A DNA stretch of 64,000 bases, from NCBI RefSeq assembly GCF_044224635.1, contig NZ_JBGAKA010000028.1:38799-102798 (forward strand), written 5' to 3'. The notes under the pieces are model-generated. The model had not been told where the DNA came from and made no database searches. It saw only the letters and a program-made list of their open reading frames with translations. The translations under genes and the position numbers were made by a program. Positions within the stretch are counted from its first letter, which is position 1; every line of letters starts with the position of its first letter. This DNA comes from Reyranella sp. (lineage in GTDB: Bacteria; Pseudomonadota; Alphaproteobacteria; Reyranellales; Reyranellaceae). Shown piece by piece: positions 41,682-56,820 of this stretch.

Positions 41682-41683
41682 TT

Positions 41684-41708
41684 CCTCCCCAAGCTGCGCT
41701 TGGGGAGG
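41684..41708. terminator. Single REP-A hairpin placed exactly between two convergent stop codons (possible bidirectional terminator)
   Basis: CCTCCCCAAGC-TGC-GCTTGGGGAGG, 3 nt after the LLM stop and 9 nt before the carboxylase stop. Confidence 0.4.
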
Positions 41709-41716
41709 AGAAGAAC

Positions 41717-44700
41717 CTACGGCCTGAACTGCAGCGCCCGCGGCCCGAGCTGCGAGGGCTGCGACACGATGCGGTACGCGTCGCCAACCCATTCGCAGAC
41801 CAGCCGGCGGGTGTCGCGCGGGTCGATCATCTCCTCCATCTCGAAGCGGTTGAGCGGGCCGATGGGCCCGCGCGCGCTCTCGATGCGGGCGTTGATCTCG
41901 GCGCGCAGGGCGGCCGGATCGGCGGCCTCGGCGAGCTGGCGCTTGTAGGCCGCCTCGATACCGCCTTCGGGCGGGATGCCGCCGACGTCGGCGGCCGGCC
42001 ACACCACGCGCGCCGACACCGCAGCGCGCGGCGTGGCGTAGTTGTTGCCGGCGACGCCGAAGCTGCGGCGCATCAGCACGGTGAAGATCGGCACCGTCAC
42101 CTGGGCGAAGGCCACCATCCATTCGCCGCCCTTGCGGATGGTGCCGGCGACCTCGTGCTCGATGCCGACGGCGAAGCCCGGATTGTCGACCAGGTTGAGC
42201 ACCGGCAGATGGAACAGGTCGCACAGGTCGAGATGGCGCTTGAGCTTGTCGCAGCCGTCGGCGGTCAGCGCGCCGCCGTTGATGTGCCGGGAGTCCGAGG
42301 CGATGACGCCCATCGGATGACCGGCGAAACGCACCAGGCCCGTCACCTGGTCGGTGCCCCACAATGGCCCGATCTCGAAGAACGAGTCCTTGTCGGCCAT
42401 CAGCCGGATGGCGCGCCGCACGTCGAAGGTCGCGGTGCGCTTGCGCGGCACCAAGGTCAGCAGCTCCTCCTCGCGGCGGTCGGCCGGATCGGCCGAGGGG
42501 GCAACCGGCGGCACCTCGTAGACGCTGGGCGGCAGGTAGGACAGGAAGCGCCGCGTCTGGGCCATCGCCTCCTCCTCGGACTCGGCCAGGTTGTCGACCG
42601 AGCCGTTGCGGCAATGGATCTGCCAGCCGCCGAGATCCTCCTTGGTGACGTCGTAGCCCATGGCGTGGCTGACCACCGGCGGGCCGGCGACGAAGAGCTG
42701 CGAGATGTCGCGCACCATCACCGAGAAATGGCCGAGCACCGCCTTGGCAGCACCAATGCCGACGACGCTGCCCAGCAGCATGTTGACCACCGGCACCTTG
42801 CTCAGCTGATCGACATAGAGGGTGCTGCCGAGATGGCCGGGCAGGAACGAGCCCCCGGTGCCGGTGACGCGCGGCCGGCCGGCCTTGATCGCGCCGGTGC
42901 TCTCCTTGACCGACGCCGCGCCGTCGCTTGCCTGCTTGGGCACCATGGTGGCGACGCTGCCGCCGCCCGACGAGCCGTCGAGCAGGCGGATCGACGGCGC
43001 GCGCAGCTCGGTCGACAGCCGGTCGAAATGGCGCGACTTCTGGCCCACCGCGCCATCGGCGTGACCGCCGCGCGAGGTGAAGTCGTCGGCGCAGACGACG
43101 CAGGCGCGGCCGTCGATGCGGCCGGTGCCGCCGACATGGCTGGCCGGCGTGAACTCGGCGATGTTGCCGTCCTCGTCGTAGCTCGCGAAGCCGGCAAGAC
43201 TGCCGATCTCGCGGAAGCTGCCCTTGTCGAGCAGCGCATCGATGCGCTCGCGGCAGGTGAGCTTGTGGCGGTTGCGCTGGCGCACCACGCCGGGATCCTT
43301 CGAGCCCGGCGCCAGCCGTGCATGGGCGATCGCCTGCAGGGCGCTCACCTGGGCGAGCACCGGCGACCAGCTGTCCGCTGCCGACGCCGCGACGACGATG
43401 TCGGTGGCGCCGGCCGCCGGACGCAGGACGGCGAGCACCTGGCCGCCGTCGACCGCATTGCCGACCGCGATCGGGGCCAGGCTCGTCACCGTGCCGGCGC
43501 ACGGCGCCGTGACCGAGCTCTCCATCTTCATCGCCGTGACCACGAACAGGGTGTCGCCGGCCGCGACCCTCTGGTCCTCGCCGACATTGATGGCGACGAC
43601 CGAGCCGGCGTGCGGGCACTCGATGCCGCGATGGCCGGCCGGCACTGGCAGCGTCGGCTTGGGTGGCGGCAGCATGCCCGGGGGACGGCCGCGCCCCAGG
43701 GCGGCGGCCTGCTGGTCGAGGAAGTGCAGGGCGCCGGCCTGCTTCGGCTTGGCCGCGCCGAGCTCGGGTGCTTCGCTCAGGAGGGTGGTGCGCGCGTCGC
43801 CGGCGCGGAACGCGGCATGGCCCAGGATGGCGTCGAGCTGCGCGAGATTGGTCGGCACGCCGGCGATGTGGAATTCGCCGAGCGCGCGGCGCGTGCGATC
43901 GACCGCCGACTGGAACGAGCCCGACGAATTCGACTGGCAGATCAGCTTGGCGAGCAGCGGATCGAACTGCGGCGGCGGGGCGAGGCCGACGTAACCGCAG
44001 GCATCGACGCGCACGCCGGGGCCCGACGGCTCGCGATAGGCGCTGAGCGTGCCGGTGCCCTGGGCGACGACGCGGGCCTGGATGGCGAAGCCGCGCGGCG
44101 CGCCGACGGCCTTCTGGTCGGCGAGGCCGAGGGCGCCCAGCGAGGCGCCGGCGGCGATGCGGAACTGCGCCTCGACCAGATCGATCCCCGTCACCTGCTC
44201 CGTGATCGTGTGCTCGACCTGGATGCGCGGATTGCACTCGATGAAGTAGTGCTCGCCCGATTCAGGATTGACCAGGAACTCGACGGTGCCGGCATTCTCG
44301 TAGCGCGCGGCGCGGGCGAGCTTCAGGGCATCGTCGAGGATGCGCTGGCGCAGGCCGTCGTCGAGGTTGGCGGCCGGTGCCACCTCGACGACCTTCTGGT
44401 TGCGCAGCTGCACCGAGCAGTCGCGCTCATGCAGGTGCACGACATTGCCCTTTCCATCGCCCAGCACCTGGACCTCGATGTGGCGCGGCCGCGGCACGAT
44501 CTTCTCCAGGAACACCGCGCCGTCGCCGAACGCGGCTTGCGCCTCGCCCTGGCAGCGCGCGAAGGCCTCGTCCATGTCCTCAGGCCCCGCCACGGCGCGC
44601 ATGCCGCGCCCGCCGCCGCCGGCCGAAGCCTTCAGCATCACCGGATAGCCGACCGACTGGGCGAGCGCCTTGGCCTCGGCGCTCGAGGCGAGGGCGGCCG

Positions 44701-45133
44701 GCGCGCCGGGCACCACCGGGATGCCCTGCGACTGCGCGAAGGCGCGCGCCTCGACCTTGTCGCCGAACAGCGCCAGGGTCGCCGGCGCCGGCCCGATGAA
44801 GCGCAAGCCTTCGACGCGGCAGCGTTCGGCGAAGTTGGCGTTCTCGGAGAGGAAGCCGTAGCCCGGATGCACGCAATCGCTGCCGCTTTCCTTGGCGGCC
44901 GTGATGATCGCCTCGACATCGAGATAGGCGCGCACCGGATCGGCGGCGAGCGCCGCGCCGTTGCCGATCTCGCGCGCGCCAATCTCCCGCGCACTCGTCG
45001 CGAGCTTGGCATGCAGCGACAGCGCATCGGCCGGCGCATGGACCGCCACCGACTCGACACCGAGCGCCGATGCCGCCCGCGCAATTCGAATCGCGATCTC
45101 GCCGCGATTGGCGATCAGGACACGCTTGAACAT
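41717..45133 (-). CDS. Single-chain biotin-dependent acyl-CoA carboxylase (biotin carboxylase + BCCP + carboxyltransferase fused)
   Basis: BC domain: RVLIANRGEIAIRIARAA, GYPVMLKASAGGGGRGMR. Biotinyl motif VTAMKMESSV. The C-terminal ~520 aa is a carboxyltransferase (crotonase-like) domain. The ATG at 45133 has GAGGAA upstream. Confidence 0.9.
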   Translation of the reverse strand: MFKRVLIANRGEIAIRIARAASALGVESVAVHAPADALSLHAKLATSAREIGAREIGNGAALAADPVRAYLDVEAIITAAKESGSDCVHPGYGFLSENANFAERCRVEGLRFIGPAPATLALFGDKVEARAFAQSQGIPVVPGAPAALASSAEAKALAQSVGYPVMLKASAGGGGRGMRAVAGPEDMDEAFARCQGEAQAAFGDGAVFLEKIVPRPRHIEVQVLGDGKGNVVHLHERDCSVQLRNQKVVEVAPAANLDDGLRQRILDDALKLARAARYENAGTVEFLVNPESGEHYFIECNPRIQVEHTITEQVTGIDLVEAQFRIAAGASLGALGLADQKAVGAPRGFAIQARVVAQGTGTLSAYREPSGPGVRVDACGYVGLAPPPQFDPLLAKLICQSNSSGSFQSAVDRTRRALGEFHIAGVPTNLAQLDAILGHAAFRAGDARTTLLSEAPELGAAKPKQAGALHFLDQQAAALGRGRPPGMLPPPKPTLPVPAGHRGIECPHAGSVVAINVGEDQRVAAGDTLFVVTAMKMESSVTAPCAGTVTSLAPIAVGNAVDGGQVLAVLRPAAGATDIVVAASAADSWSPVLAQVSALQAIAHARLAPGSKDPGVVRQRNRHKLTCRERIDALLDKGSFREIGSLAGFASYDEDGNIAEFTPASHVGGTGRIDGRACVVCADDFTSRGGHADGAVGQKSRHFDRLSTELRAPSIRLLDGSSGGGSVATMVPKQASDGAASVKESTGAIKAGRPRVTGTGGSFLPGHLGSTLYVDQLSKVPVVNMLLGSVVGIGAAKAVLGHFSVMVRDISQLFVAGPPVVSHAMGYDVTKEDLGGWQIHCRNGSVDNLAESEEEAMAQTRRFLSYLPPSVYEVPPVAPSADPADRREEELLTLVPRKRTATFDVRRAIRLMADKDSFFEIGPLWGTDQVTGLVRFAGHPMGVIASDSRHINGGALTADGCDKLKRHLDLCDLFHLPVLNLVDNPGFAVGIEHEVAGTIRKGGEWMVAFAQVTVPIFTVLMRRSFGVAGNNYATPRAAVSARVVWPAADVGGIPPEGGIEAAYKRQLAEAADPAALRAEINARIESARGPIGPLNRFEMEEMIDPRDTRRLVCEWVGDAYRIVSQPSQLGPRALQFRP

Positions 45134-45157
45134 CGATTTCCTCACCTGTCTCTATCT

Positions 45158-45253
45158 TGTCATCCTGAGCGCAGCGAAGGATCTCATCGCCGTTTCGTAC
45201 AGCTGCTCTTGCAATTTCGGTCGATGAGATCCTTCGCTGCGCTCAGGATGACA
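45158..45253. repeat. REP-C: perfect 32-bp inverted repeat with a 32-nt loop
   Basis: TGTCATCCTGAGCGCAGCGAAGGATCTCATCG ... CGATGAGATCCTTCGCTGCGCTCAGGATGACA. I checked complementarity base by base. Confidence 0.9.
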
Positions 45254-45259
45254 GAACCA

Positions 45260-46306
45260 TCACGCCAGCTTGTAGACCCGCTTCGCCGTGCCGCTGAACA
45301 GCGCCGTCTTCTCGTCCGCCGAGGCGCCGGCGGCCATCAGCTTGAAGGCGTTCCACAGCACGGCATAGCCGGTCGAGACCTTGTCGACCGGGAAATTGCT
45401 TTCGAACATGCAGCGGCTGGCGCCGAAGGCCTCGATGCAGGTCGCGATCCACGGCTTCCAGGCGTCGGCGATCTCACGCGATGTCGGCGGCACGGGGCGG
45501 TGCATGTGGTCGAACGGACCGATATCCATGCCCAGCCCGCCCAGCTTGACCACCACGTTGGGGCAGCGCGCCAGCTCGATCATGTCGGCCTTCCAGGCGG
45601 CGAACACGGCGTCGGTCTTGCCGGCATAGGGGCCGATGCCCAGCGGCCCGCCGCAGTGATTGAGGATCATCGTGGTCTGCGGCACGGCGCGGGCCAGCGC
45701 AATCACCTCCGCGAGCTGCGGATGGTATTGCCAGGCCTCGTAGGTGAGGCCGAGGGCGCCGAGCTGGGCCACGCCCTCGCGATAGTCCGCCTGGGCATAG
45801 AGTCCCTGCGGCGGATTGGTGTGGCTGTTGCGGACGTCGGGGCTCGCGTCCCAGCCGCCGGCATGGCGGATGCCGCGGAAGCGGCCGTTGCCGGCGGCGA
45901 TGTGCGCCTCGAGCACGGCGCGGGCGCGTGCACCCAAGGTCATGTCGACATACGAGACGATGCCCGCACAGGCGCGGGTCGGGCCGTAGATGCCACTCTC
46001 GCTCATCGCCGCCACGCCGTTGGCGAACTCGGTCTCGCCGATGGGGCGCATCTCGGCCGGTCCGCCGCCGCGGTACATCGAGCGGCAGTCGATATAGACC
46101 GTATGGGTGATGGTGTGGCCGGTGCCGGTGTCGGCCAGCAGCTCGTCGAGCAGGTAGCGCTGGTTGAGGTGATCCCACAGATGATGGTGCGGATCGACGA
46201 TCGGAAGATCCGGATCGAGGATCGGCTCCTTCGCCTGCTTGGCGAGCCACGCCTCGTCCGGCACGAAGGCGCGGCGCTGCCGTTCGACTGTCTGCCCTTT
46301 GGCCAT
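45260..46306 (-). CDS. Amidohydrolase-2 (metal-dependent TIM-barrel hydrolase/decarboxylase) family protein
   Basis: IVDPHHHLWD (HxH metal motif), ILNHCGGP, FESNFPVD, typical of the PF04909-like family. Confidence 0.85.
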   Translation of the reverse strand: MAKGQTVERQRRAFVPDEAWLAKQAKEPILDPDLPIVDPHHHLWDHLNQRYLLDELLADTGTGHTITHTVYIDCRSMYRGGGPAEMRPIGETEFANGVAAMSESGIYGPTRACAGIVSYVDMTLGARARAVLEAHIAAGNGRFRGIRHAGGWDASPDVRNSHTNPPQGLYAQADYREGVAQLGALGLTYEAWQYHPQLAEVIALARAVPQTTMILNHCGGPLGIGPYAGKTDAVFAAWKADMIELARCPNVVVKLGGLGMDIGPFDHMHRPVPPTSREIADAWKPWIATCIEAFGASRCMFESNFPVDKVSTGYAVLWNAFKLMAAGASADEKTALFSGTAKRVYKLA

Positions 46307-46359
46307 CGTTTCCCCTCCGCTTGTCCCCGAAATCTACAAGGCAAGCAGGGGGCGGCGCA

Positions 46360-47982
46360 TCAGTGCCGCTTCGGCTGATGGAATTCGTAGGGCGGATAAT
46401 CCTTGGCGATGTCGGAGACGACCTCGATCACGGCCGGGGCGTTGCTTGCGATCGCCTCGCGCAGCGCCCCGCGCAGGCCGTCGGCCGTCTCGACCTGCCA
46501 CGCGGCGACGCCGAACGACTTGGCATAGGCCTGGAAGTCGGGGTTGGTGAGAACGGCGCCCGAGTGGCGGCCTTCGTAGAGCCGCTGCTGGTCGCGCAGC
46601 ACGTTGCCGTAGGAGGCGTTGTTCACCACCACGGTCACCAGGTTGATGCCGAACTGCACTGCGGTCGCGAGGTCGGAGCCGCCGAACAGGAAGCCGCCGT
46701 CACCGGTGACCGACACGACCGGACGATCGGGATTGGCCACCTTGACGCCGAGCGCCGTCGGGAAGCCGTAGCCCAGGGTGCCGGAGAAACCCGAGGAGAT
46801 CAGGCGGCGCGGCTGGTGAACGGGATAGCCGTACCAGATGATGTAGCCGACCTGCGTCACCTCATCGACGACGATGCCATCGTCGGGCAGCACGTCGCGG
46901 ATCGCCTCGACCATCGAATATTGCGGCTGCGCCTTCTGGATCGCCGCCAGCGCCGCCGCCTTGGCCTTCGCCACCTCGGCGCGCCACGCCGCGGTATCGC
47001 TCTTCTTCGCAACGGCGGCGGCGAGGGCGCGCGCACCTTGGGCGGCGTCCGCCACGATCGGCACGTTGACCGCGAGCCGGCGATGCTCGGCCGGATCGAT
47101 GTCGATGCGCGCCGTCTTGAGGCCGGCGGGCGCCGCGCCCCAGCGTGCCATCGGCACGTCGAGACGCGTGCCGATGCCGATCAGCAGATCGACCTTGTCC
47201 CACAGCTCGAAGCCGCCGACCGTGTTCAGCGACAGCGCATGGCGCGAATCGACCACGCCCTTGCCGGTGCGGAAGGAGACCACCGGCGCGCCGATCTTCT
47301 CGGCCAGCGCCAGCACCTCGGCGCCGGCCTCGGCCGCGCCGCCGCCGACCCAGATCATCGGCGCCTTGGCGACATCGACCAGCCTGGCGAGGGCCGCGAT
47401 CTTGTCGGGATCGGGGGTGGGAGCCGCGTGCTTGCCCAGCGGATCGATCGGCGTGACGTCGGCGGTTGCCGGGAACATGTCCCACGGCATCTCGACCGCG
47501 ACCGGGCCGGGGCGGCCCGACACCATCGCCTGGTAGGCGCGCGCCATGACCTGCGGCGCGTCGGTCGGATGCTCGATGCGCTCGGCGAACTTCAGCAGCG
47601 TCTTCAGCGTGGCCAGCTGGTCGGGCATCTCGTGCAGCTGCCCGCGGCCGCGCCCGATCATGGCGCTCGGCACCTGGCCCGTGATGCACATGATCGGCGC
47701 GTTGACGCCCCATGCCGTGGTCAATGCGCCCATCGTATTCATGACGCCGGGGCCCGGCACCACCGAGAAAGCCGACGGCTTGCCGGTCGACTGCGCATAG
47801 CCCAGCGCCATGTAGGCCGTCGTCTGCTCGTGCCGCGCATTGACCACGCGCAGCCGGTTGGCGTTGCGCGCGAAGGCATCGAACAGCCCGTACATCTGCA
47901 CGCCGGGCAAGCCGAAGACCGTATCGATTCCGTGACGCAACAGTGAATCGACGATGGCGTCGCCGCCGGTCATGCGTGGCAT
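46360..47982 (-). CDS. Thiamine diphosphate-dependent enzyme (acetolactate synthase-like large subunit family)
   Basis: GGDAIVDSLLRHGIDTVFGLPG, RHEQTTAYMALGY, and the ThDP motif GDGGF...NN (VTGDGGFLFGGSDLATAVQFGINLVTVVVNNASYG). Confidence 0.9.
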   Translation of the reverse strand: MPRMTGGDAIVDSLLRHGIDTVFGLPGVQMYGLFDAFARNANRLRVVNARHEQTTAYMALGYAQSTGKPSAFSVVPGPGVMNTMGALTTAWGVNAPIMCITGQVPSAMIGRGRGQLHEMPDQLATLKTLLKFAERIEHPTDAPQVMARAYQAMVSGRPGPVAVEMPWDMFPATADVTPIDPLGKHAAPTPDPDKIAALARLVDVAKAPMIWVGGGAAEAGAEVLALAEKIGAPVVSFRTGKGVVDSRHALSLNTVGGFELWDKVDLLIGIGTRLDVPMARWGAAPAGLKTARIDIDPAEHRRLAVNVPIVADAAQGARALAAAVAKKSDTAAWRAEVAKAKAAALAAIQKAQPQYSMVEAIRDVLPDDGIVVDEVTQVGYIIWYGYPVHQPRRLISSGFSGTLGYGFPTALGVKVANPDRPVVSVTGDGGFLFGGSDLATAVQFGINLVTVVVNNASYGNVLRDQQRLYEGRHSGAVLTNPDFQAYAKSFGVAAWQVETADGLRGALREAIASNAPAVIEVVSDIAKDYPPYEFHQPKRH

Positions 47983-48036
47983 GGGATCTCCCGTTTCGAG
48001 ATGGTGATGTCGATCTTGGCTCGGCTCGCAGGCGAA

Positions 48037-48315
48037 TCAATCGATCCCGACCATCCGCGCGATGCGCTGGATGCCCTGCCACATCGGATCGAGAGCTGCG
48101 ACTGTCCGGAACATGTCCTTGCAGTCGGCGAGGATGGCCTTGAGCTTCACACCGTTGGGCTCGTCCTTCTCCGCTTCCCGCCGTGCCTCCTCGAGCAGCG
48201 CCCGCAGCTCACGCAGCTCCTCGCGGTAGTCGCCGTCGATCGCCTTGAGCGATTCGGTCAAAGCCGCCGCCAGGCTCCGCTGAGGGCTGCCGGGTGGTTG
48301 GGTGCCAGTTGTCAT
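48037..48315 (-). CDS. Hypothetical 92-aa protein within the dioxygenase operon
   Basis: MTTGTQPPG...YREELRELRALLEEARREAEKDEPNG...MWQGIQRIARMVGID. Predicted helical, no family recognised, weak RBS. Confidence 0.5.
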   Translation of the reverse strand: MTTGTQPPGSPQRSLAAALTESLKAIDGDYREELRELRALLEEARREAEKDEPNGVKLKAILADCKDMFRTVAALDPMWQGIQRIARMVGID

Positions 48316-48381
48316 GAAAAGCTCTGCCTCTGTGTCACGATCTGCTTGCCATTCGGAATTGCACAGTAGCGCAGTCCTCGG

Positions 48382-49371
48382 TCAGAACTCGACCGGATAG
48401 GGCGGCAATTCGCCGCTTTCGTAGCGTTGCGGCAGTCCGGGCGTCACGTTCTCCCAGACGTAGAGCATGGAGCGCTTGGTCGAGTAGCCCTGATGGCGGA
48501 TGTCGGCCGGCATGGCGGCGACGTCACCCGCCTTCATGGTCACGCGGGCGCGCGGCGCGCCTGTGTTCTTGTCGGCGACGTCCCACACGATCTCGTCGGA
48601 CAGCTGGATGAACCACTCGACGCGATCGTTGCCGTGGAACACCGGCAGGATGTACTCCTCGGTGGTCGGGCAGGCGAGCGAAGCCTTGCACACCGCCGTC
48701 ACCGACGGATTCCAGGTGACGTCGGAGCGGCTGAGATACTTGAACAGGCTGAAGGCGTGCAACTGGCCCTCGAAGCCCGGCTCGGCATGGATCTCCGGCT
48801 CGTCCTGCGCCACATCCGCGAAGGCGCGATTGACCGGCATGTCGTCGCGCAGGGGCGAGTCGCCGGGCAGGCCGGGCATGCGGGTGGTGCCGATGCGCGT
48901 GCGTTCGATCGCGCCGATGTTGTCGCCGTTCTTGTGGCCGAAGGCGCTGCCGGTCTCGACCGGAGCGGCGAACGGGTCGAAGCCTTCGTTGACCCAATCG
49001 CGCAGGATCGCCTTGAAGGTCGCCATGATGTGCTCGGAGTCGAACTGCTCGAGGTAGTCGACGCCGGCTTCCTTCAAGGTGCCGTTGAAGGTACCGGCAT
49101 AGAAATCGACCTTGCCGTAGCGATTGCGCGTGCCGATGACGTGGTCGAAATTGACCCAGCCATAGAAGAAGTTCCACGCCACGTCTCGCATGCAGGCGCG
49201 CAGGAAGGCATCCGCCGGCATCTGGTGCGAGCGTCGTGCACCCTTGGCCGGCCAATGCACGGTGACGAAGTACTCGTCGCGCGACAGCTCGAACCTGCCG
49301 AGCTTGAAGCTGCGATAGCCGTTGCGGTTGCTCGGCTCGGAGGTGACGACCTGGGTGAGCGTGTCGGGCAT
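48382..49371 (-). CDS. Cupin-type ring-cleavage dioxygenase, hydroquinone 1,2-dioxygenase large-subunit-like (PnpD/HapD-like)
   Basis: 329 aa. H246-G-N248-D-R-V-E252 ... H293 matches in spacing the His/Asn/Glu/His iron ligand set I recall for two-subunit hydroquinone dioxygenase PnpCD. The size and the preceding ~163-aa partner also fit. This is recall only, with no alignment. Confidence 0.6.
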   Translation of the reverse strand: MPDTLTQVVTSEPSNRNGYRSFKLGRFELSRDEYFVTVHWPAKGARRSHQMPADAFLRACMRDVAWNFFYGWVNFDHVIGTRNRYGKVDFYAGTFNGTLKEAGVDYLEQFDSEHIMATFKAILRDWVNEGFDPFAAPVETGSAFGHKNGDNIGAIERTRIGTTRMPGLPGDSPLRDDMPVNRAFADVAQDEPEIHAEPGFEGQLHAFSLFKYLSRSDVTWNPSVTAVCKASLACPTTEEYILPVFHGNDRVEWFIQLSDEIVWDVADKNTGAPRARVTMKAGDVAAMPADIRHQGYSTKRSMLYVWENVTPGLPQRYESGELPPYPVEF

Positions 49372-49386
49372 TTGCGAATTTTTCCG

Positions 49387-49878
49387 TCAGGCGTAACAGA
49401 TCTCGCGCCACTTCTGGACACTGAGATCGCCCAGCACGGTCTGCTGCAGCAGCACGCCGAGCCGCGTCGCGGTGAAGCGATAGGCATTGCCGGCGCCGAG
49501 CAGCACCTGGTGGCCACGCCGGAGCTTGACGTAGCCCATTGGTGCGCCCTCGGGTAGCTCGCCAGCCAGCACCGCGCCATTCTTGCCGGCATCCGGCGGA
49601 GACGTGAGCTTGATGAGGTCGACCGTGATCTCGCCGTCCATGCACAGCGCGAACTCGTCGTGGCCGCAGGCGAACCAGGGCGACGCGCCCTCGGCCCGCA
49701 TCACTTCCTGAACGTATTCGAGGTTCTTGCCGACCACGACGCGTTCGTAGGGCTTCGACCTGGCGGCGACCTCGAAGATGTTCGAGAACACGTAGTGCCG
49801 CGCCTCGCCGGATACCAGCTCGATGGTTCCCTTGGTGTAGTCGGTAATCGAGCCGAACACGGTATGGACCTGGCTCAT
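49387..49878 (-). CDS. Putative small subunit of the two-component dioxygenase (PnpC/HapC-like)
   Basis: 163 aa from the ATG at 49878 (GGGAGGGG upstream), lying 15 nt upstream of the large subunit. The remainder of track ORF 49387..51300 was rejected as an artefact. Confidence 0.5.
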   Translation of the reverse strand: MSQVHTVFGSITDYTKGTIELVSGEARHYVFSNIFEVAARSKPYERVVVGKNLEYVQEVMRAEGASPWFACGHDEFALCMDGEITVDLIKLTSPPDAGKNGAVLAGELPEGAPMGYVKLRRGHQVLLGAGNAYRFTATRLGVLLQQTVLGDLSVQKWREICYA

Positions 49879-49913
49879 GGCTGTCCCCTCCCTGTTTCGC
49901 GAAGGGTGGAATA

Positions 49914-49929
49914 GTCTCGCGCGCAAGAC
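49914..49929. promoter_or_regulatory. Candidate LysR operator (GTCT-N8-AGAC dyad) in the divergent intergenic region
   Basis: GTCTCGCGCGCAAGAC lies between the dioxygenase operon (start 49878) and the lysR gene (start 49951). Confidence 0.3.
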
Positions 49930-49950
49930 AAGGGATACCCGGAGTCTTCC

Positions 49951-50934
49951 ATGCCGCTTCGTCTTCCGCCTCTGCCCGCCCTGCGCCTGTTCGAGGCGGC
50001 GGGCCGGCTGCGCAGCTTCAAGCTGGCCGCGGCGGAGCTCAATATAACGCCGAGTGCGGTGAGCCACGGCATTGTCGGCCTCGAGCAGGCGCTCGGCGTC
50101 AGCCTGTTCGAGCGCAAGCCGCGCGGCCTGTCCTTGACGCGCCTCGGTGCCGACTACCTGACCTATGTCAGCGAGGCGTTGTCCCTGATCGCCGTCGGCA
50201 CGCAGCGCCTGCCCGATCGCTCCGCGCCGCGCTCGATCGCCGTCAGCTGTGCCCCGACGCTTGCCCAGCGCTGGCTGCTGCCGCGCCTCGCGGGTTTTCG
50301 CGAGCGCTGGCCGAAGACCTCCATCGTGGTCGATACCTCGCGCCGCCATGTCGGCTTCCCGGTCGACGGTTTCGACTTCGCCGTCCGCATGAGCCGGGCG
50401 CCGGTGGGTGGGCTTGCCTGGGTAAAGCTGATCCACGGTGCCCTGATGCCGGTCTGCAGTCCCGACTATCGCGCCGGCCTCATGGACCGCCAGGGCAAGG
50501 TCGATCTCCGGCGCGCGACGCTGATCCATGTCACGACGGTGAGCGAAGGCTGGCGGTCGTGGCTGAAGGCGGAAGGCCATGCCGAAATCGACGTAGACGG
50601 CGGCCTGCGTGTCGACACGTTCGAGCTCGCCTTCGAGGCGGCGACCCTGGGGCTTGGCGTCGTGCTGGCCATGCGCCCGCTGGTCGATCGCGATCTCGAG
50701 GCCGGCCGCCTGGTCGCGCTGGGTGGCGGGACGCGGCCGTCGCCAACGGCCTACTGGCTGGTGAGCGCACCCGGAACCGAGCGGCGGGCCGACCTGCGCG
50801 GCTTCAAGCGATGGCTGGTCGGAGAGGCGCAGGCCACGGGACGAGGTTCCTTCCTCCTCCCCAGCTCTGCTGGGGAGGTGTCGCGTCATATGCGACGGAG
50901 GGGTCATGAGCCTCATGACCCCTCCGCCCCGTAA
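49951..50934 (+). CDS. LysR-family transcriptional regulator (GcvA-like)
   Basis: HTH block LRLFEAAGRLRSFKLAAAELNITPSAVSHGIVGLEQALGVSLFER. The last ~28 codons read through a REP-A element. Confidence 0.9.
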   Translation: MPLRLPPLPALRLFEAAGRLRSFKLAAAELNITPSAVSHGIVGLEQALGVSLFERKPRGLSLTRLGADYLTYVSEALSLIAVGTQRLPDRSAPRSIAVSCAPTLAQRWLLPRLAGFRERWPKTSIVVDTSRRHVGFPVDGFDFAVRMSRAPVGGLAWVKLIHGALMPVCSPDYRAGLMDRQGKVDLRRATLIHVTTVSEGWRSWLKAEGHAEIDVDGGLRVDTFELAFEAATLGLGVVLAMRPLVDRDLEAGRLVALGGGTRPSPTAYWLVSAPGTERRADLRGFKRWLVGEAQATGRGSFLLPSSAGEVSRHMRRRGHEPHDPSAP

Positions 50935-50965
50935 GACGGGGCACCTCCCCAGCGAGCTGGGGAGG
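50856..50965. repeat. REP-A composite element (short form, lacks the GGCCAAAAG module)
   Basis: CCTCCCCAGCTCTGCTGGGGAGG; GTCGCGTCATATGCGAC; AGGGGTCATGAGCCTCATGACCCCT; GCCCCGTAAGACGGGGC; CCTCCCCAGCGAGCTGGGGAGG. Confidence 0.85.
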
Positions 50966-51064
50966 AGGAAGAACAGGTGAGCGTTGCTCACCCGTCGTTG
51001 CGTTCTTCTCCTTTGTCGGCGTCGTTGCGCCTTCGCATTGTCCGCTTCCCTTGGAGTTGGACAG

Positions 51065-52294
51065 ATGCAGCGTACGGGTCGCGGGGTGTTGATCGTGGTC
51101 GTGGCGGCGGCCTTGATGCTGAGCGTTGCCATGGGCACGCGGCAGACGTTCGGATTGTTCCTCGCTCCGCTGGCCCAGGAGCGCGGCCTTGCGATCACGA
51201 CCATCGCGCTGGCGATCGCGCTGCATAATCTGGTGTGGGGCCTCACCCAGCCGCTCGCCGGCGCGGCGGCCGACCGTTTCGGCTCGATCCCCGTCGTCAT
51301 CGTCGGTGCGGTCGCTTACGCGGCAGGGTTGGCGCTGACGGCGATCACCGACTCGGGCGTGCTGCTCGTGCTCGGCCTGGGACCGCTGGTCGGAATCGGC
51401 ATGAGCTGCACGACCTTCGGCGTCGTGCTGACGGCGGTGGGCCGCGCCGCGACCGCCGAGAACCGCAGCCTGGCGATGGGACTGTCGGGTGCCGGCGGTT
51501 CGCTGGGGCAAGTCCTGCTGGTGCCGCTCTCCCTGATCGGGCTGGAGGATTGGGGGATCGCACCATCGCTCGTCGGGCTCGCAGTGCTGTTGCTGGTGGT
51601 GGCTCCCGTTGCGCTGCTGCTCGAGCGGCGGCAGCAACCGACTACTCTGCACGCCGACAGCCCTGCGGGGGCGCCGCGCCTCGGCGAGGCGCTGACCGAG
51701 GCCATGCAGCATCCGGGCTACCGGCTGCTGACCCTGGGATTCTTCACCTGCGGCTTCCAGCTCGCCTTCATCGGGACGTATCTGCCCGACTATCTCACGC
51801 TGTGCCACATGCCGCTGGGGCTCAGCGCGACGGCGCTGTCGCTGATCGGCTTGTTCAATATCGCGGGAAGCTGGACCTGCGGTTGGCTGGGCGGCCGCTT
51901 CCGCCAGCAACAGGTATTGGGCTGGCTTTACCTCGTGCGCGGCGTCACCATTGCGGTCTTCTTCCTGCTGCCCAAGAGCACGGTATCGGTGGTGATCTTC
52001 GCCGCCGTGATGGGCCTCACCTGGCTGGGCACGGTGCCGCTCACCAGCGGCTGGCTGGCCAAGGTCTTCGGAACGTCCCATCTCGGCACGCTGTTCGGCG
52101 TGTGCTTCTTCAGTCACCAGATCGGTTCGTTCCTCGGCGCCTGGCTGGGTGGCGTCGTGTTCGAGCTGACAGGCTCCTACGCGATCGTCTGGATCCTGAC
52201 CGCCGCTGCCGGCGTGATGGCCGCGCTGCTCAACTTCCCGATCAAGGATGTCGTGCCACGGCCAGTGGCGAGGCTTGCGCCGATATCACGCTGA
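51065..52294 (+). CDS. MFS transporter (12-TM, MFS_1 type)
   Basis: ATG at 51065 with GGAG 8 nt upstream. Reads MQRTGRGVLIVVVAAALMLSVAMGTRQTFGLF...AADRFGS... and is multi-TM throughout. Confidence 0.85.
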   Translation: MQRTGRGVLIVVVAAALMLSVAMGTRQTFGLFLAPLAQERGLAITTIALAIALHNLVWGLTQPLAGAAADRFGSIPVVIVGAVAYAAGLALTAITDSGVLLVLGLGPLVGIGMSCTTFGVVLTAVGRAATAENRSLAMGLSGAGGSLGQVLLVPLSLIGLEDWGIAPSLVGLAVLLLVVAPVALLLERRQQPTTLHADSPAGAPRLGEALTEAMQHPGYRLLTLGFFTCGFQLAFIGTYLPDYLTLCHMPLGLSATALSLIGLFNIAGSWTCGWLGGRFRQQQVLGWLYLVRGVTIAVFFLLPKSTVSVVIFAAVMGLTWLGTVPLTSGWLAKVFGTSHLGTLFGVCFFSHQIGSFLGAWLGGVVFELTGSYAIVWILTAAAGVMAALLNFPIKDVVPRPVARLAPISR

Positions 52295-52310
52295 CAAGAG
52301 CTTCATTGCC

Positions 52311-52383
52311 GGGGGCGCGCCACTCCAGTGGCGCGATCTTCGTCCCTCGTACAGATGACGCGCCACTGGAGTGGCACGCCCCC
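52311..52383. repeat. REP-B element (pair of CGCGCCACT-CC-AGTGGCGCG hairpins in a larger palindrome)
   Basis: GGGGGCGCGCCACTCCAGTGGCGCG-N23-CGCGCCACTGGAGTGGCACGCCCCC. Confidence 0.85.
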
Positions 52384-52395
52384 AGCAACAAGAGC

Positions 52396-53466
52396 TCACT
52401 CGGTGACGAACAGAATCCGCAAATCGTGCTTGGGCACGTAGTCCTGCTCACTCGCCTCGAACTTCAGAGGGCCCGTCCGGCGGAGGGCGAGGTCGGAACA
52501 GAAAACGACCACCTCCGTCTTCGCGTTGGTGTCGCCTGCCAGCCCGGCTGGCCCGCCTTCGACGGTGAGATGAAATGTGCCGATGGGGCCGCGCCAGTTG
52601 CGGGCGGTCAGCAGGATGTAGCCCAGCGTATAACCCTGCAGGTAGGAATCCTGGACACCGCTCTTCTGGCGCCGCTCGGCGGTGACACGCTGCGACATCG
52701 CGCGAAGTGCCTGATCGGTGGTGCCGGAGATGCAGAAGTCGCGCTGCGGGTCACCGTCGCCCGAGCCGGTGATCTTGCCGTTGGCCTCCGGGACGATGAA
52801 GCGAAAACCCAGGATTGGCCGGTAGCTGTGCTCGATCACCGTCACGCCCGGCGCGAAGGTCTGCATCCAGTGGAAGGTGACACGGGCTGTCCAGGGCAGG
52901 CGATAACCCTTGCCGTCGAGCGGCTCGACGGCGCCCAGCGTTTCGAGCGCGGCCCGCGTGGCGGGCTCGAGCTCGGGATCGTCAGGCGGAAAGAACAGGC
53001 CGGTGCGAAGGACCAGCTTCATGCTGCCGATCTTCATCAGTTCGGCCGTGATGTTGCGTCCGCCCGGCAGCTCGGCGCGCACGTCGGTTTCGGGCATCAC
53101 GTCGTGCCCATCCACGCGCAAGCGGAAGTGCAGGAAGTTGGGATCGGTCGGCTGATCCATGACGATGTTGTGGCCACCGGTGCTGGTGACCCGTCCGCCC
53201 GGCGTCTGGCTCGGCAGCTCGGGCAGCGGAAAGGCGACGCGCAGGGTCACCGGCTGGCCGGTGTCGTTGCGCATCTCGTAGCGCACGCGCACCTCGGCAG
53301 GCGAGAGGTGCAGGTCCTCGCGCTGCATGGTGATGGCGTCGGTCTTCACCAGCACGATGCCGCCGGCCGCCAGCTCCGATGCCGAATCGTTGGAGAAGGC
53401 GGCGGCGCCGCTGCATAGCATCGCCAGGCCGGCGAGCCAGGCAACCCAGCTCGCGTCGCCTGTCAA
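52396..53466 (-). CDS. DUF4424-like secreted protein
   Basis: Signal peptide WVAWLAGLAMLCSGAAAFS, then NDSASELAAGGIVLVKTDAITMQREDLHLSPAEVRVRYEMRN, which resembles my recollection of the DUF4424 N-terminal block. The TTG start at 53466 is in frame and overlaps the upstream stop (TTGA), with GGAG 8 nt upstream. Confidence 0.7.
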   Translation of the reverse strand: MTGDASWVAWLAGLAMLCSGAAAFSNDSASELAAGGIVLVKTDAITMQREDLHLSPAEVRVRYEMRNDTGQPVTLRVAFPLPELPSQTPGGRVTSTGGHNIVMDQPTDPNFLHFRLRVDGHDVMPETDVRAELPGGRNITAELMKIGSMKLVLRTGLFFPPDDPELEPATRAALETLGAVEPLDGKGYRLPWTARVTFHWMQTFAPGVTVIEHSYRPILGFRFIVPEANGKITGSGDGDPQRDFCISGTTDQALRAMSQRVTAERRQKSGVQDSYLQGYTLGYILLTARNWRGPIGTFHLTVEGGPAGLAGDTNAKTEVVVFCSDLALRRTGPLKFEASEQDYVPKHDLRILFVTE

Positions 53467-54617
53467 CGCAGCGTCTCCAGCATGCGCACCAGCAGCTGGG
53501 CGCGCGGCACCAGCGAGGCGAAGCTGATTTGCTCGTCGAGCGCGTGGGCGCCGCGGCCGTCGGCGCCCAGCCCGTCGAGAGTCGGGATGCCGAGCGCCGC
53601 CGGGAAATTGCCGTCGCTGACGCCGCCGGTCAGCGGCGTATCCTCGAGCACGAAGCCGATCTCGGCAGCGCAACTCTTGGCATGCTCGAACAGGGCGGTG
53701 ATGCCTTCGTTCTTGGCGTAGGCCGGCCGGTTGATGCCGCCGGTGACCTCGATGCGGCAATCCGGGTCGAAGGCGGGACGGTTCAGGACGCGTTGAACCA
53801 CCGCATCGGCGTCGATGCCGGGCGGCACGCGCAGGTCGATGGTCGCCGTCGCCAGCGCCGGCACGACATTGGGCGCGCTGCCGCCCTGCGCCATGCCGAC
53901 GACGACCGAGATGCCGACCGCCGGATCGGAGATCGCCTCGAGATCGAGGATCTGGCGGGCGAGTTCGCGCAGTGCGCTGCGGCCGTCCTGCGGCCGCGAG
54001 CCGGCGTGCGAGGCGCGTCCGGTAATGGTCATGTCGAAGCGGCCCCAGCCCTTGCGCGCCGTCACGCACTTGCCGCCGTCGCGCGCCGGCTCCATCACCA
54101 GCACGTACTTGGATTTGCGCGCTGCGGCCTCGATGGCGGCGCGGCTGGTCGGGCTGCCGACCTCTTCCTCTGGCACGTAGAGAACGCGGACGGGCAGGGT
54201 GGTGCGGCGACCCTCGCGCACGAAATGCTGCAGCGCATAGCAGGCGAGATAGGAGCCTGCCTTCATGTCGTAGATGCCCGGCCCGTAGACCGTGTCGCCC
54301 TCGCGCCGGAAGACGTGGGTGGTTGCCAGCGCGCCGATCGGATGCACCGTGTCGAGATGGCCCATGATCAGGATGCCGGGCTCGTTCTCGTCGCCCCACG
54401 GCGCGCGCGCCTCGAGGATGTCGCCGAAGCCATCGCGTCCCGGCGTGCGCTGCGTATGGGCGCCGATGCGGGTCAGGTCGCTCTGCACGGCATCGACCAG
54501 CTTGTTGACCGCGACGCCGTCATGGCTCGGCGTCTCGATCTCGACCCAGCGGCGGATGCCGGCGAGGATCTCCTCGCCGTCGAAGGTCGGAATGTTGGAG
54601 CGGGCTGAGTCGGTCAC
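53463..54617 (-). CDS. M20-family metallopeptidase (glutamate carboxypeptidase/CPG2-like)
   Basis: 384 aa with ILIMGHLDTVHP, GPGIYDMKAG, VPEEEVGSP, GRASHAG. Confidence 0.9.
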   Translation of the reverse strand: MTDSARSNIPTFDGEEILAGIRRWVEIETPSHDGVAVNKLVDAVQSDLTRIGAHTQRTPGRDGFGDILEARAPWGDENEPGILIMGHLDTVHPIGALATTHVFRREGDTVYGPGIYDMKAGSYLACYALQHFVREGRRTTLPVRVLYVPEEEVGSPTSRAAIEAAARKSKYVLVMEPARDGGKCVTARKGWGRFDMTITGRASHAGSRPQDGRSALRELARQILDLEAISDPAVGISVVVGMAQGGSAPNVVPALATATIDLRVPPGIDADAVVQRVLNRPAFDPDCRIEVTGGINRPAYAKNEGITALFEHAKSCAAEIGFVLEDTPLTGGVSDGNFPAALGIPTLDGLGADGRGAHALDEQISFASLVPRAQLLVRMLETLR

Positions 54618-54654
54618 GGGCGGTCACCTTGGATGAAGTCGATCAGGAATTGCT

Positions 54655-54744: not shown

Positions 54745-56820
54745 CTAATCCTCCCGCACGATCAGGCTGCCGGTCGGATGCACCTCGGCGGTTTGGCGCG
54801 GCAGCAGCAGCGTGGTGGCGTCGAGCTGGGTGATGATCGCGGGACCGGCGATGCGGGCGCCGGCGCCGAGGCGCGCGCGTGCGTAGACCGGCGCCTCGAC
54901 GATGCCGCTTTCCAGGTTGATCGACTGGCGCGCGACGATCGCCTCGCGCGGGTCGCCGCCAGGCGCCAGCTCGCTCAGCTGCGGCTGCGGCAGCGCGCCG
55001 CTCGCCGAGACGCGCAAGGTCACGATCTCGACCGGCGTGTCCTCCTGGGCGAAGGTGTAGAGCGTGCGATGCAGCTCGTGGAAGCGGCGCAGCACCTCGG
55101 CTACCGCCGCCTCGCTGACCTCGGTCCCCGGCCAGTCGACCGTCAGCTCGAAGCCCTGATGCTCGTAGCGCAGGCTGGCGCTCCACACCGTCTTGCGGGC
55201 TGCCGGCGGCACGCTCTCGGTCTCGAACCAGCGCTCCGCTTCGGCCTGCAGGCCGGTGAAGGTCGCCGCCATCTGGGCCACGTCGAAATGGCCGTGCTGC
55301 TGCAGGCAGGTGCGGGCGAAATCGGCCTTGAGATCGGACACCAGCAGCCCCAGCGCCGACAGCACGCCGGGCGACGGCGCGATCAGCTGGGTGCGGATGT
55401 CGAGCAGGCGCGCCAGCGCGCCGCCATGCAGCGGTCCGGCGCCGCCGAACGGCACCAGCACGAAGTCGCGCGGATCGCGCCCGCGTTCGACCGAGACGAC
55501 GCGGATCGCGCCGACCATGTGGCTGTCGGCAATCGCCAGGATGCCGCGCGCGGCGGCCATCAGATCGAGGCCTAGCGGCTCGGCCACCTTGGTGGCCACC
55601 GCCCGCTCGGCCGCCTCTATGTCGAGCCGGAATGTGCCGTCGAGCAGCCATGGCGGCAGATGCCTGAGCACGAGATGGGCGTCGGTCACGGTGGGCTCGC
55701 TGCCGCCGCGGCCGTAGCAGCACGGGCCGGGATTGGCACCGGCGCTCTGCGGGCCGACCGTCAGCGCGCCCGAGCGGCCGACGCGGGCGATCGAGCCGCC
55801 GCCGGCGCCGATGGTGACGATGTCGACCATGGGCAGCGGCAGCGGCCATTCGCCGACGCGGCCGTTGACGGTGACGCTGGGCTTGCCGTCCTTGATCAGG
55901 CTGATGTCGGCCGAGGTGCCGCCGATGTCGACGCCGATCAGGTCGCCGTAGCCGGCAGCGGCGCCGACGAAGGCCATGCCGACCGCGCCGGCGGCGGGAC
56001 CGGACAGCGCCGTTTCGACTGGCGCACGGCGCACCGTCGAGGTGCCGGCGACGCCACCGCTCGATTTCATCAGCAGCAGGGGCGCTGCGACCTCGGCCTC
56101 GCGCAGGCGGTCTTCGAGCCGGCCGACATAGGCCGAGATCACCGGCATGACGTAGACGTTGAGGATCGTCGCCATGCTGCGCTCGTACTCGCGGAACACC
56201 GCCAGCACCTCGCTCGAGATCGAGACCAAAGCGTCGGGATGTTCTTCGCGGATCAGCGCGGCGGTGCGCTGCTCGTGCGCGGCGTTGGCGTAGCTGTGCA
56301 GGAAGCAGACGGCGATCGCCTGCACGCCCGCTGCGCGCAGGGTGCGGGCGGCGGCGCGCACCGCCGCCTCGTCGAGCGGCTCGATCTCGCTGCCGTCAGG
56401 TCCCAGCCGTCCGGCCACCTCGAAGATGCGGTCGGGCGTCACCGGCCGGCGCGGCTTCACCCAGGCGAACATGTTGGCGCGCCGCGGGATGTCCTGGCGG
56501 CCGATCTCCAGCACATGGCGAAAGCCCAGGGTGGTGATCAGGCCGGCGGCCGCGCCCTTGCCCTCCAGGATCATGTTGGTGGCGACGGTGGTGCCATGCA
56601 GCACCCGGCCGACGTCGCCGGGCTGCGCGGCGGCGGCGGCAAGGCCATCGCGCACGCCGTTGATGAAGCCCAGCGACGGATCGGCGGGCGTGGTCGAGGT
56701 CTTGGCCGTCCATAGCCGGCCGGTCTTGATGTCGAGCACCGTGACGTCGGTGAAAGTGCCGCCGGTGTCGATGCCGAGAATCGTATGCGGGCGGGCAGAG
56801 CCGAGATCGCCTGCGTTCAT
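54745..56820 (-). CDS. hyuA: Hydantoinase/oxoprolinase family protein, A-type subunit
   Basis: ILGIDTGGTFTDVTVLD N-terminus and GVDIGGTSADISL, about 690 aa. The ATG at 56820 overlaps the hyuB stop (ATGA). Confidence 0.9.
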   Translation of the reverse strand: MNAGDLGSARPHTILGIDTGGTFTDVTVLDIKTGRLWTAKTSTTPADPSLGFINGVRDGLAAAAAQPGDVGRVLHGTTVATNMILEGKGAAAGLITTLGFRHVLEIGRQDIPRRANMFAWVKPRRPVTPDRIFEVAGRLGPDGSEIEPLDEAAVRAAARTLRAAGVQAIAVCFLHSYANAAHEQRTAALIREEHPDALVSISSEVLAVFREYERSMATILNVYVMPVISAYVGRLEDRLREAEVAAPLLLMKSSGGVAGTSTVRRAPVETALSGPAAGAVGMAFVGAAAGYGDLIGVDIGGTSADISLIKDGKPSVTVNGRVGEWPLPLPMVDIVTIGAGGGSIARVGRSGALTVGPQSAGANPGPCCYGRGGSEPTVTDAHLVLRHLPPWLLDGTFRLDIEAAERAVATKVAEPLGLDLMAAARGILAIADSHMVGAIRVVSVERGRDPRDFVLVPFGGAGPLHGGALARLLDIRTQLIAPSPGVLSALGLLVSDLKADFARTCLQQHGHFDVAQMAATFTGLQAEAERWFETESVPPAARKTVWSASLRYEHQGFELTVDWPGTEVSEAAVAEVLRRFHELHRTLYTFAQEDTPVEIVTLRVSASGALPQPQLSELAPGGDPREAIVARQSINLESGIVEAPVYARARLGAGARIAGPAIITQLDATTLLLPRQTAEVHPTGSLIVRED

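Follow-up and report, generated by a model that had tools for sequence, protein, structure and literature searches.

A PnpCD-type hydroquinone dioxygenase in a probably mosaic gene neighbourhood of Reyranella

Introduction

Does a ring-cleaving dioxygenase that is encoded directly in front of a thiamine diphosphate (ThDP)-dependent enzyme, an amidohydrolase and a carboxylase form a dedicated catabolic route with them, or have these genes only come to lie together? The question is raised by a stretch of 64,000 nucleotides from a Reyranella sp. (contig NZ_JBGAKA010000028.1, positions 38,799 to 102,798 of the forward strand), here called the window, and in particular by its positions 45260-50934. 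The genome that contains it, G000, has a size of 8.2 Mb and is 99.8% complete; G numbers denote the genomes that were compared, L numbers loci, and C numbers contigs of G000. A sequence-only reading of the window had described a LysR-controlled operon in which a two-subunit hydroquinone-dioxygenase-like enzyme is paired with the ThDP enzyme and an amidohydrolase-2 protein, and had taken this partner set as a sign of a different substrate or a non-canonical downstream route. The gene map, based on gene calling with the GC content at third codon positions (GC3) and on Pfam and NCBIfam scans, returned all six genes of that reading at the positions and sizes that it had given, and the neighbourhoods in other genomes were rebuilt by open reading frame (ORF) calling and BLAST clustering around matched genes. 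The comparison suggests that the locus is probably an evolutionary mosaic of units with separate histories and not a dedicated pathway, in which a PnpCD-type dioxygenase of what seems an ordinary kind lies among shuffled genes.

Organization and history of the locus

On the minus strand, the gene for the small dioxygenase subunit (HQS, 49387-49878, 163 amino acids, PnpC/HapC type) is followed by the gene for the large subunit (HQL, 48382-49371, 329 amino acids, PnpD/HapD type, with PF18191 and a C-terminal cupin), by u92 (48037-48315), which encodes a conserved small protein of 92 amino acids, and by the genes for the ThDP enzyme (46360-47982, 540 amino acids, acetolactate-synthase-like superfamily, PRK08266 subfamily) and the amidohydrolase-2 protein (AH2, 45260-46306, 348 amino acids, PF04909 with E 4.9e-33). 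Directly downstream of AH2 lies the gene for a carboxylase of 1142 amino acids (LCC, 41717-45145), in which the biotin carboxylase (BC), biotin carboxyl carrier protein (BCCP) and carboxyltransferase (CT) parts are joined in a single chain. The intergenic gaps from HQS to LCC measure 15, 66, 54, 53 and 114 nt. The arrangement, in which the 1.5-kb dioxygenase pair sits directly upstream of an apparently pre-existing u92-ThDP-AH2-LCC string, is found in a clade of four genomes, G000, G012, G031 and G098.

A clean indel of 4.0 kb distinguishes this clade from G017, the nearest genome outside it, of which the ThDP enzyme is 93% identical. When the indel was mapped by blastn of the window against the locus in G017 (L134), window positions 46347-48376 aligned with L134 10602-8539 and positions 52398-54637 with L134 8346-6102; in L134, only about 190 bp separates the two aligned blocks. 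The segment that is missing from G017 (48376-52398) contains exactly HQL, HQS, the LysR gene and a gene for a transporter of the major facilitator superfamily (MFS). Its left border, at 48376, where the aligned stretch that starts in LCC ends, is six bases beyond the HQL stop codon, and its right border, at about 52398, is at the stop codon of a DUF4424 gene (52396-53478, minus strand, Pfam match), which is preceded by an M20 peptidase gene (53463-54617, minus strand, Pfam match). The segment has two hairpins resembling repetitive extragenic palindromic (REP) elements. One lies inside it, between LysR and MFS (50850-50971, a nested structure of inverted repeats I1 and I5), the other at its right-hand border (52306-52388, inverted repeat I3, 30-nt arms that are 93% complementary). 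Whether the clade gained the segment or G017 lost it, the arrangement arose within one subclade.

The gene order in G017 is M20, DUF4424, u92, ThDP, an extra stretch of about 1.9 kb, AH2 and LCC. This extra stretch between the ThDP and AH2 genes (L134:10602-12486) carries an ORF of 463 amino acids on the opposite strand that has no Pfam match. Seen more widely, the genes of G017 form a co-directional string of a peptide-type ATP-binding cassette (ABC) importer, hydantoinase B and A, M20 and DUF4424, followed by u92-ThDP-AH2-LCC (cf. window 54745-64000). Copies similar to the 50850-50971 hairpin occur at two places in L134; in the window, the LysR reading frame extends into this nested hairpin.

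Outside this subclade the partner set is not conserved. In a set of 80 dioxygenase loci taken with 10-kb flanks from all bacteria, one genome per species, u92, ThDP, AH2 and LCC stand beside the dioxygenase genes in three, all on Reyranella-type contigs with an HQL that is at least 95% identical. Seen from the other side, HQL is located upstream of the ThDP gene in four of the 30 loci of the family with a ThDP orthologue, which are those of the clade; of the other loci, that of G017 has u92 alone upstream, an Abhydrolase_3 esterase gene lies upstream in six, and the rest have other neighbours. For HQL itself, ORF clustering distinguished five or more contexts within the family. The dioxygenase pair may be part of a LysR-HQS-HQL-aldehyde dehydrogenase (ALDH)-ABC transporter cluster, with a reductase gene only in the sister genus (context A); it may lie beside dxs, ispA and fadBA (context B), or be divergent from an ABC importer and be followed by a luciferase-like monooxygenase (LLM) or an acyl-CoA dehydrogenase (ACAD)-like oxygenase (context C). 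The window represents context D, and in G005 the pair is accompanied by a luciferase-like gene, an AH2 paralogue and a gene resembling Baeyer-Villiger monooxygenases (context E). The match between the window and R. soli or two of its relatives is confined to the 1.5-kb HQS-HQL stretch; the peptide-type ABC transporter flanks of the R. soli-type loci map to contig C29 of G000 (about 83-88% nucleotide identity), the remaining neighbours of these loci to contigs C81 and C24. The distance between HQL and the ThDP gene is 143 kb in G002 and 235 kb in G003. Within Reyranella, the 1.5-kb HQS-HQL pair behaves as a relocatable unit.

The ThDP, AH2 and LCC genes make up an older trio with a history apart from that of the dioxygenase. 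Orthologues of the ThDP enzyme, with 82-96% identity, are present in 46 of 112 genomes of the family, and the trio occurs without adjoining dioxygenase genes in G106, G132, G112, G022, G029 and G017. A search for HQL in the trio-bearing genomes G022, G029, G132 and G112 gave no match. Elsewhere the trio is usually preceded by the Abhydrolase_3 esterase gene, sometimes with a glucose-methanol-choline (GMC) oxidoreductase gene; the esterase-GMC pair of G000 is found on another contig, C73, at 80-81% identity. That the fused carboxylase belongs with the ThDP and amidohydrolase genes, as had been supposed, is borne out. The view that these partners point to another substrate or a new downstream route is not supported: adjacency is limited to four closely related genomes among the 80 dioxygenase and 30 ThDP loci, the trio occurs without the dioxygenase, the dioxygenase is found apart from the trio in four or more other contexts, and the 4.0-kb indel against G017 is clean.

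Some further observations concern the surroundings of the trio. Its neighbours in other genomes also include a family III CoA-transferase and hydantoinase A, and in G112 (L126) a hydantoinase-A homologue is divergent from the ThDP gene. The spacer between AH2 and LCC in the window contains a REP-like hairpin (45158-45253, inverted repeat I2) with perfect 32-bp arms that are 100% complementary, which on a read-through transcript could serve as an attenuator or as an mRNA-stabilising element. The alignment with G132 (L132) breaks across this spacer, and there the AH2 and LCC ORFs abut.

A further unit is the independent pair of genes for LysR (49951-50934, plus strand, 327 amino acids) and the MFS transporter (50984-52294, plus strand, MFS_1 with E 3.5e-35), which flanks the dioxygenase pair in three of the four clade genomes. 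The LysR protein is GcvA-like, with HTH_1 and LysR_substrate domains, and scores 251.5 bits with NF008352, under the cutoff of 288. Orthologues with 62-71% identity, each followed co-directionally by an MFS gene (66-75% identity), were found in nine other genomes, in none of which dioxygenase genes lie within 1.5 kb upstream of the LysR orthologue; the spacer upstream of LysR shows no conservation outside the clade. In G012, DUF4424 and HQS are separated by 3.6 kb (L012:3944-7573) with unrelated genes instead of LysR-MFS. These encode GNAT, methyltransferase and ATP-grasp domains and have a GC3 of 0.67-0.77, as compared to about 0.85-0.9 for their neighbours, and the site between DUF4424 and HQS looks like an insertion hot spot. 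The description of the operon as LysR-controlled could not be upheld, as the pair is independent in nine other genomes and is swapped out in the sister genome G012. A role of LysR as dedicated regulator of the dioxygenase is unsupported, with the pair standing alone elsewhere, its upstream DNA unconserved and G012 lacking it at this site. In the window, LysR is divergent from HQS with a spacer of 72 bp (49879-49950) that includes the palindrome TTCGCGAA, and GGGAGGGG is located upstream of the HQS ATG.

Identity of the dioxygenase

Judged from their sequences, HQS and HQL encode a bona fide hydroquinone 1,2-dioxygenase of the PnpCD/HapCD type. The sequence features that define the two-subunit (type II) enzymes, i.e. 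adjacent homologous genes, the PF18191 domain and the cupin motif, were all found. In phmmer comparisons with PDB entry 4ZXA, HQS matched the small subunit with E 2.9e-66 (residues 4-162 against 10-167) and HQL the large subunit with E 1.1e-177, about 80% of the aligned residues being identical to PnpD; the matches to 5M21 had E values of 3e-130 for the large and 1.1e-52 for the small subunit. PF18191, the N-terminal domain of PnpD, was detected in HQL with 267.7 bits against a cutoff of 25 (E 2.6e-80). The motif H-x-N-x3-E...H is present in HQL as H246-G-N248-DRV-E252 and H293, and in the alignment with 4ZXA each of H246, N248, E252 and H293 faces an identical residue, the numbering differing by 10 throughout. 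These would match His256, Asn258, Glu262 and His303, which we take to be the Fe(II) ligands of PnpD. What had been read as a hydroquinone-dioxygenase-like enzyme is thus not only confirmed as such by the strong matches of both subunits to PnpC and PnpD, it is even a close homologue.

Enzymes of the PnpCD/HapCD class are heterotetramers with Fe(II) in the C-terminal cupin of the large subunit, and they cleave the hydroquinone ring beside one of its hydroxyl groups, with 4-hydroxymuconic semialdehyde as the product. From what is known of the family, the dioxygenase of G000 would catalyze the same conversion. A search for homologues of HQL gave 3,371 proteins at E <=0.001; the best 120 of these are 72-90% identical and originate from Alpha-, Beta- and Gammaproteobacteria. 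Rough Ka/Ks values of HQL against relatives, also inside the clade, are 0.06-0.11, which indicates purifying selection. The enzyme is another member of an already known, widespread and very conserved family. Many PnpD-type large subunits carry the label 'hydroxyquinol 1,2-dioxygenase' in NCBI and UniRef. This looks like a propagated misnomer, since the name belongs to a different enzyme class, the intradiol dioxygenases.

Fate of the ring-cleavage product

The canonical pathway continues with a dehydrogenase (PnpE/HapE) and a maleylacetate reductase (PnpF/HapF), and the sequence-only reading had seen neither of them at the locus. We searched for both with the ALDH and the iron-dependent alcohol dehydrogenase (Fe-ADH)-type reductase that follow HQL in the canonical loci L079 and L021 as queries. 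The best ALDHs in G000 are 44-49% identical to the L021 and L079 queries, with none at E <=1e-170, and the best Fe-ADH proteins are 31-34% identical, with E 2.6e-32 or weaker. The reported absence of the two enzymes therefore holds genome-wide in G000 as well as at the locus, and the possibility that the follow-up genes lie elsewhere is answered by the search of the G000 contigs, in which neither PnpE nor PnpF has an orthologue. As both enzymes were looked for and not found, the locus does not belong to the canonical pnpCDEF/hapCDEF pathway.

The same pattern extends to the genus. HQL was found in 21 of 113 Reyranella genomes, and 18 of these 21 lack an orthologue of the PnpE-type ALDH. Dehydrogenase orthologues (69-79% identity) are present in three of the 113 Reyranella genomes, in each case adjoining HQL; the sister genus has them in four genomes. 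The PnpF-type reductase has no orthologue in the 104 Reyranella genomes searched, with 33% identity as the best value; the same query detected orthologues in three sister-genus genomes (69-71% identity, E about 1e-154). A dioxygenase pair without follow-up genes is thus the rule in Reyranella, and the neighbours present in the window do not explain it. The Reyranella clusters with the order LysR-HQS-HQL-ALDH-ABC (L143/L021 in G106, L149/L030 in G003, L026 and L027) are without a reductase gene; in the sister genus (cf. L154 in G082) and in Burkholderiaceae, a reductase gene is located between the ALDH and the transporter.

In G000, the ring-cleavage product would either be converted by non-orthologous dehydrogenases and reductases encoded elsewhere, or the dioxygenase would serve only to remove toxic hydroquinone. 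Contig C91 gave tblastn matches to five aldehyde-dehydrogenase regions within about 22 kb (~69.9-91.7 kb). The ALDHs of C91 are the best matches to the PnpE-type queries and are non-orthologous (35-49% identity); this ALDH-rich region may be a catabolic island.

It could be argued that the dioxygenase has a role other than hydroquinone mineralisation throughout Reyranella, acting on a substituted hydroquinone that is delivered by the neighbouring transporter, or in detoxification, with its product passing to non-orthologous enzymes elsewhere, irrespective of the genes that adjoin the pair. We regard this as unlikely, even though a role of this kind would be in line with the 18 of 21 dioxygenase-bearing genomes that lack the PnpE-type ALDH, with the reductase being found in none of 104 genomes by queries that did retrieve the sister-genus orthologues, with the transporters and the flavin- or luciferase-type monooxygenases that adjoin the pair in several contexts, and with the strong purifying selection on the dioxygenase genes. 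The identity of about 80% between HQL and PnpD and the identical surroundings of the metal site argue for the same reaction, and detoxification and catabolism cannot be separated by sequence. Moreover, such a role is compatible with a mosaic origin of the locus and not opposed to it.

Predicted functions of the neighbouring genes

The ThDP enzyme has three TPP_enzyme domains, scores 748.6 bits with NF006122/PRK08266 (cutoff 571) and contains the GDG...NN motif at residues 427-455. It is equally far from acetolactate synthases, 2-hydroxyacyl-CoA lyases and benzoylformate decarboxylases, and the NF006122 subfamily carries the NCBI name 'hypothetical protein', with no function assigned. The best PDB match of AH2 is 4dlf (E 1.6e-13), the protein has an HxH motif at residues 40-42, and four paralogues with 55-60% identity are encoded in G000. 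With the model for L-fucono-1,5-lactonase, NF052480, AH2 reaches 74.9 bits, which is below the equivalog cutoff of 400. As its nearest characterised relatives are lactonases, AH2 may have lactonase activity. An ACMSD-like decarboxylation of a muconate semialdehyde by AH2 was weighed as well and would agree less well with lactonases as the nearest characterised relatives. LCC has the domain order BC-BCCP-CT and matches 4rcn over its full length (residues 8-1119 against 4-1072, E 2.8e-131), with the biotinyl-lysine motif AMKM at residue 538.

The small protein u92 has no Pfam or NCBIfam match. It is the product of a real gene, with a rough Ka/Ks of 0.14-0.39 and an uninterrupted frame in each of the five clade genomes. 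Single-copy u92 is present in 75 of 113 Reyranella genomes and was not found in 16 genomes of other genera of the family; the orthologues are about 85-105 amino acids long and under purifying selection. Outside the G000/G017 subclade, u92 is located away from ThDP, DUF4424 and HQL, with neighbours that change with almost every genome compared (L173-L177). A function as third subunit or chaperone of the dioxygenase was rejected, u92 being single-copy throughout the genus and mostly far from the dioxygenase and ThDP genes. Its look-alikes in a protein atlas are DUF4404-like, which can serve as a lead only.

Adjacency and function

How should the co-directional arrangement then be understood? If the locus is a mosaic, as we consider probable, the position in front of the trio would be a landing site of the dioxygenase pair. 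The sole terminator-like hairpin on the minus strand is just past LCC (41683-41709, in the direction of transcription 41709-41683; 8 of the 12 bp of its stem are GC pairs, and a T-rich tail follows). Since no terminator-like site precedes the end of LCC, transcription from the dioxygenase promoter probably runs on into the trio, which would be a by-product of the landing place, and the trio would serve a different catabolic route from the dioxygenase.

Several findings weigh against a mosaic. The 4.0-kb indel may be a loss from G017 as well as a gain by the clade. Four species-level genomes have retained the arrangement, with its genes closely spaced in one direction and without a terminator-like site before the end of LCC. 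Orthologues of the ThDP gene are somewhat enriched in dioxygenase-bearing Reyranella genomes, at 14 of 20 versus 22 of 80 others, a tally in which the sampling of six of the negative genomes is inferred and which is no independent test since the genomes are related. In G005, an AH2 paralogue of 60% identity lies near a dioxygenase pair, on the opposite strand. Finally, G000 has no PnpE or PnpF orthologue, so the ring-cleavage product needs another route if the enzyme supports growth.

With the exception of the indel, these findings are also what would be expected after functional recruitment, in which the clade would have gained a dioxygenase ahead of its ThDP, lactonase and carboxylase genes and, with it, a new lower pathway for hydroquinone without maleylacetate reductase, for example by processing of the semialdehyde or a butenolide lactone by AH2 and the ThDP enzyme and carboxylation of a CoA-ester product. 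The co-directional order of the six genes from HQS to LCC would also be in line with it. However, at least four genomes have a trio that works without the dioxygenase, no ThDP orthologue was obtained from six Reyranella genomes that do carry the dioxygenase, the closed genome G077 among them, and other dioxygenase pairs of Reyranella that are without follow-up genes have no ThDP gene nearby. The operon also lacks a CoA ligase or transferase that could feed the carboxylase, and we are not aware of a ThDP reaction that would suit a 4-oxo-enal acid. Recruitment is for these reasons considered quite improbable. It is more doubtful still, and in our opinion very unlikely, that the dioxygenase of the clade is wired to ThDP, AH2 and LCC in such a way that they carry 4-hydroxymuconic semialdehyde to central metabolism by an undescribed route. 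None of the compared loci gave comparative evidence that ties the chemistry of the dioxygenase to that of the trio.

We thus favour the mosaic. From the sequence-only reading, the hydroquinone-dioxygenase homologue, the missing hap/pnp genes and the link between carboxylase and trio are retained, and the new substrate or route that was derived from the partner set is not.

Implications

A tight co-directional string of genes in a REP-rich, high-GC genome can be a young mosaic, and caution is needed when a pathway is derived from one neighbourhood. The pattern in the genus, a conserved and mobile dioxygenase pair with the dehydrogenase mostly missing and the reductase present in none of the genomes searched, may deserve follow-up. 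If Reyranella strains mineralise hydroquinone, an undescribed route for 4-hydroxymuconic semialdehyde must exist, and this would bear on the fate of hydroquinone and of the breakdown products of paracetamol, 4-nitrophenol and bisphenol in soil and water. In the literature we found nothing relevant on a reductase-free hydroquinone route, on Reyranella in connection with hydroquinone, or on the LCC family.

Comparison with known systems

The closest known system is PnpCD of Pseudomonas sp. WBC-3 (PDB 4ZXA, 4ZXC, 4ZXD), in which the small and the large subunit are likewise encoded side by side, and which shares with HQL the PF18191 domain and a C-terminal cupin with an identical H-x-N-x3-E...H motif. 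Unlike the PnpCD system, G000 has no pnpE/hapE dehydrogenase and pnpF/hapF reductase, either after the dioxygenase or elsewhere in the genome, and the LysR protein of the window is only 26-28% identical to LysR-like matches beside canonical clusters. The other classic example of the class is HapCD of Pseudomonas fluorescens ACB. The enzyme of 5M21, which presumably is the hydroquinone dioxygenase of Sphingomonas sp. TTNP3, belongs to the same two-subunit family but is further from HQS and HQL than PnpCD is. Among the neighbours, AH2 has its best solved amidohydrolase-2 relative in the L-fucono-1,5-lactonase BmulJ_04915 (PDB 4DLF), although with a score so far under the equivalog cutoff it would not itself be a fuconolactonase. 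The enzyme of 4RCN, which we take to be the long-chain acyl-CoA carboxylase of Mycobacterium avium subsp. paratuberculosis, resembles LCC in that a single chain carries BC, BCCP and CT together with the AMKM biotin motif; the difference is that the LCC gene is here fixed behind the genes for a ThDP enzyme and an amidohydrolase-2 protein.

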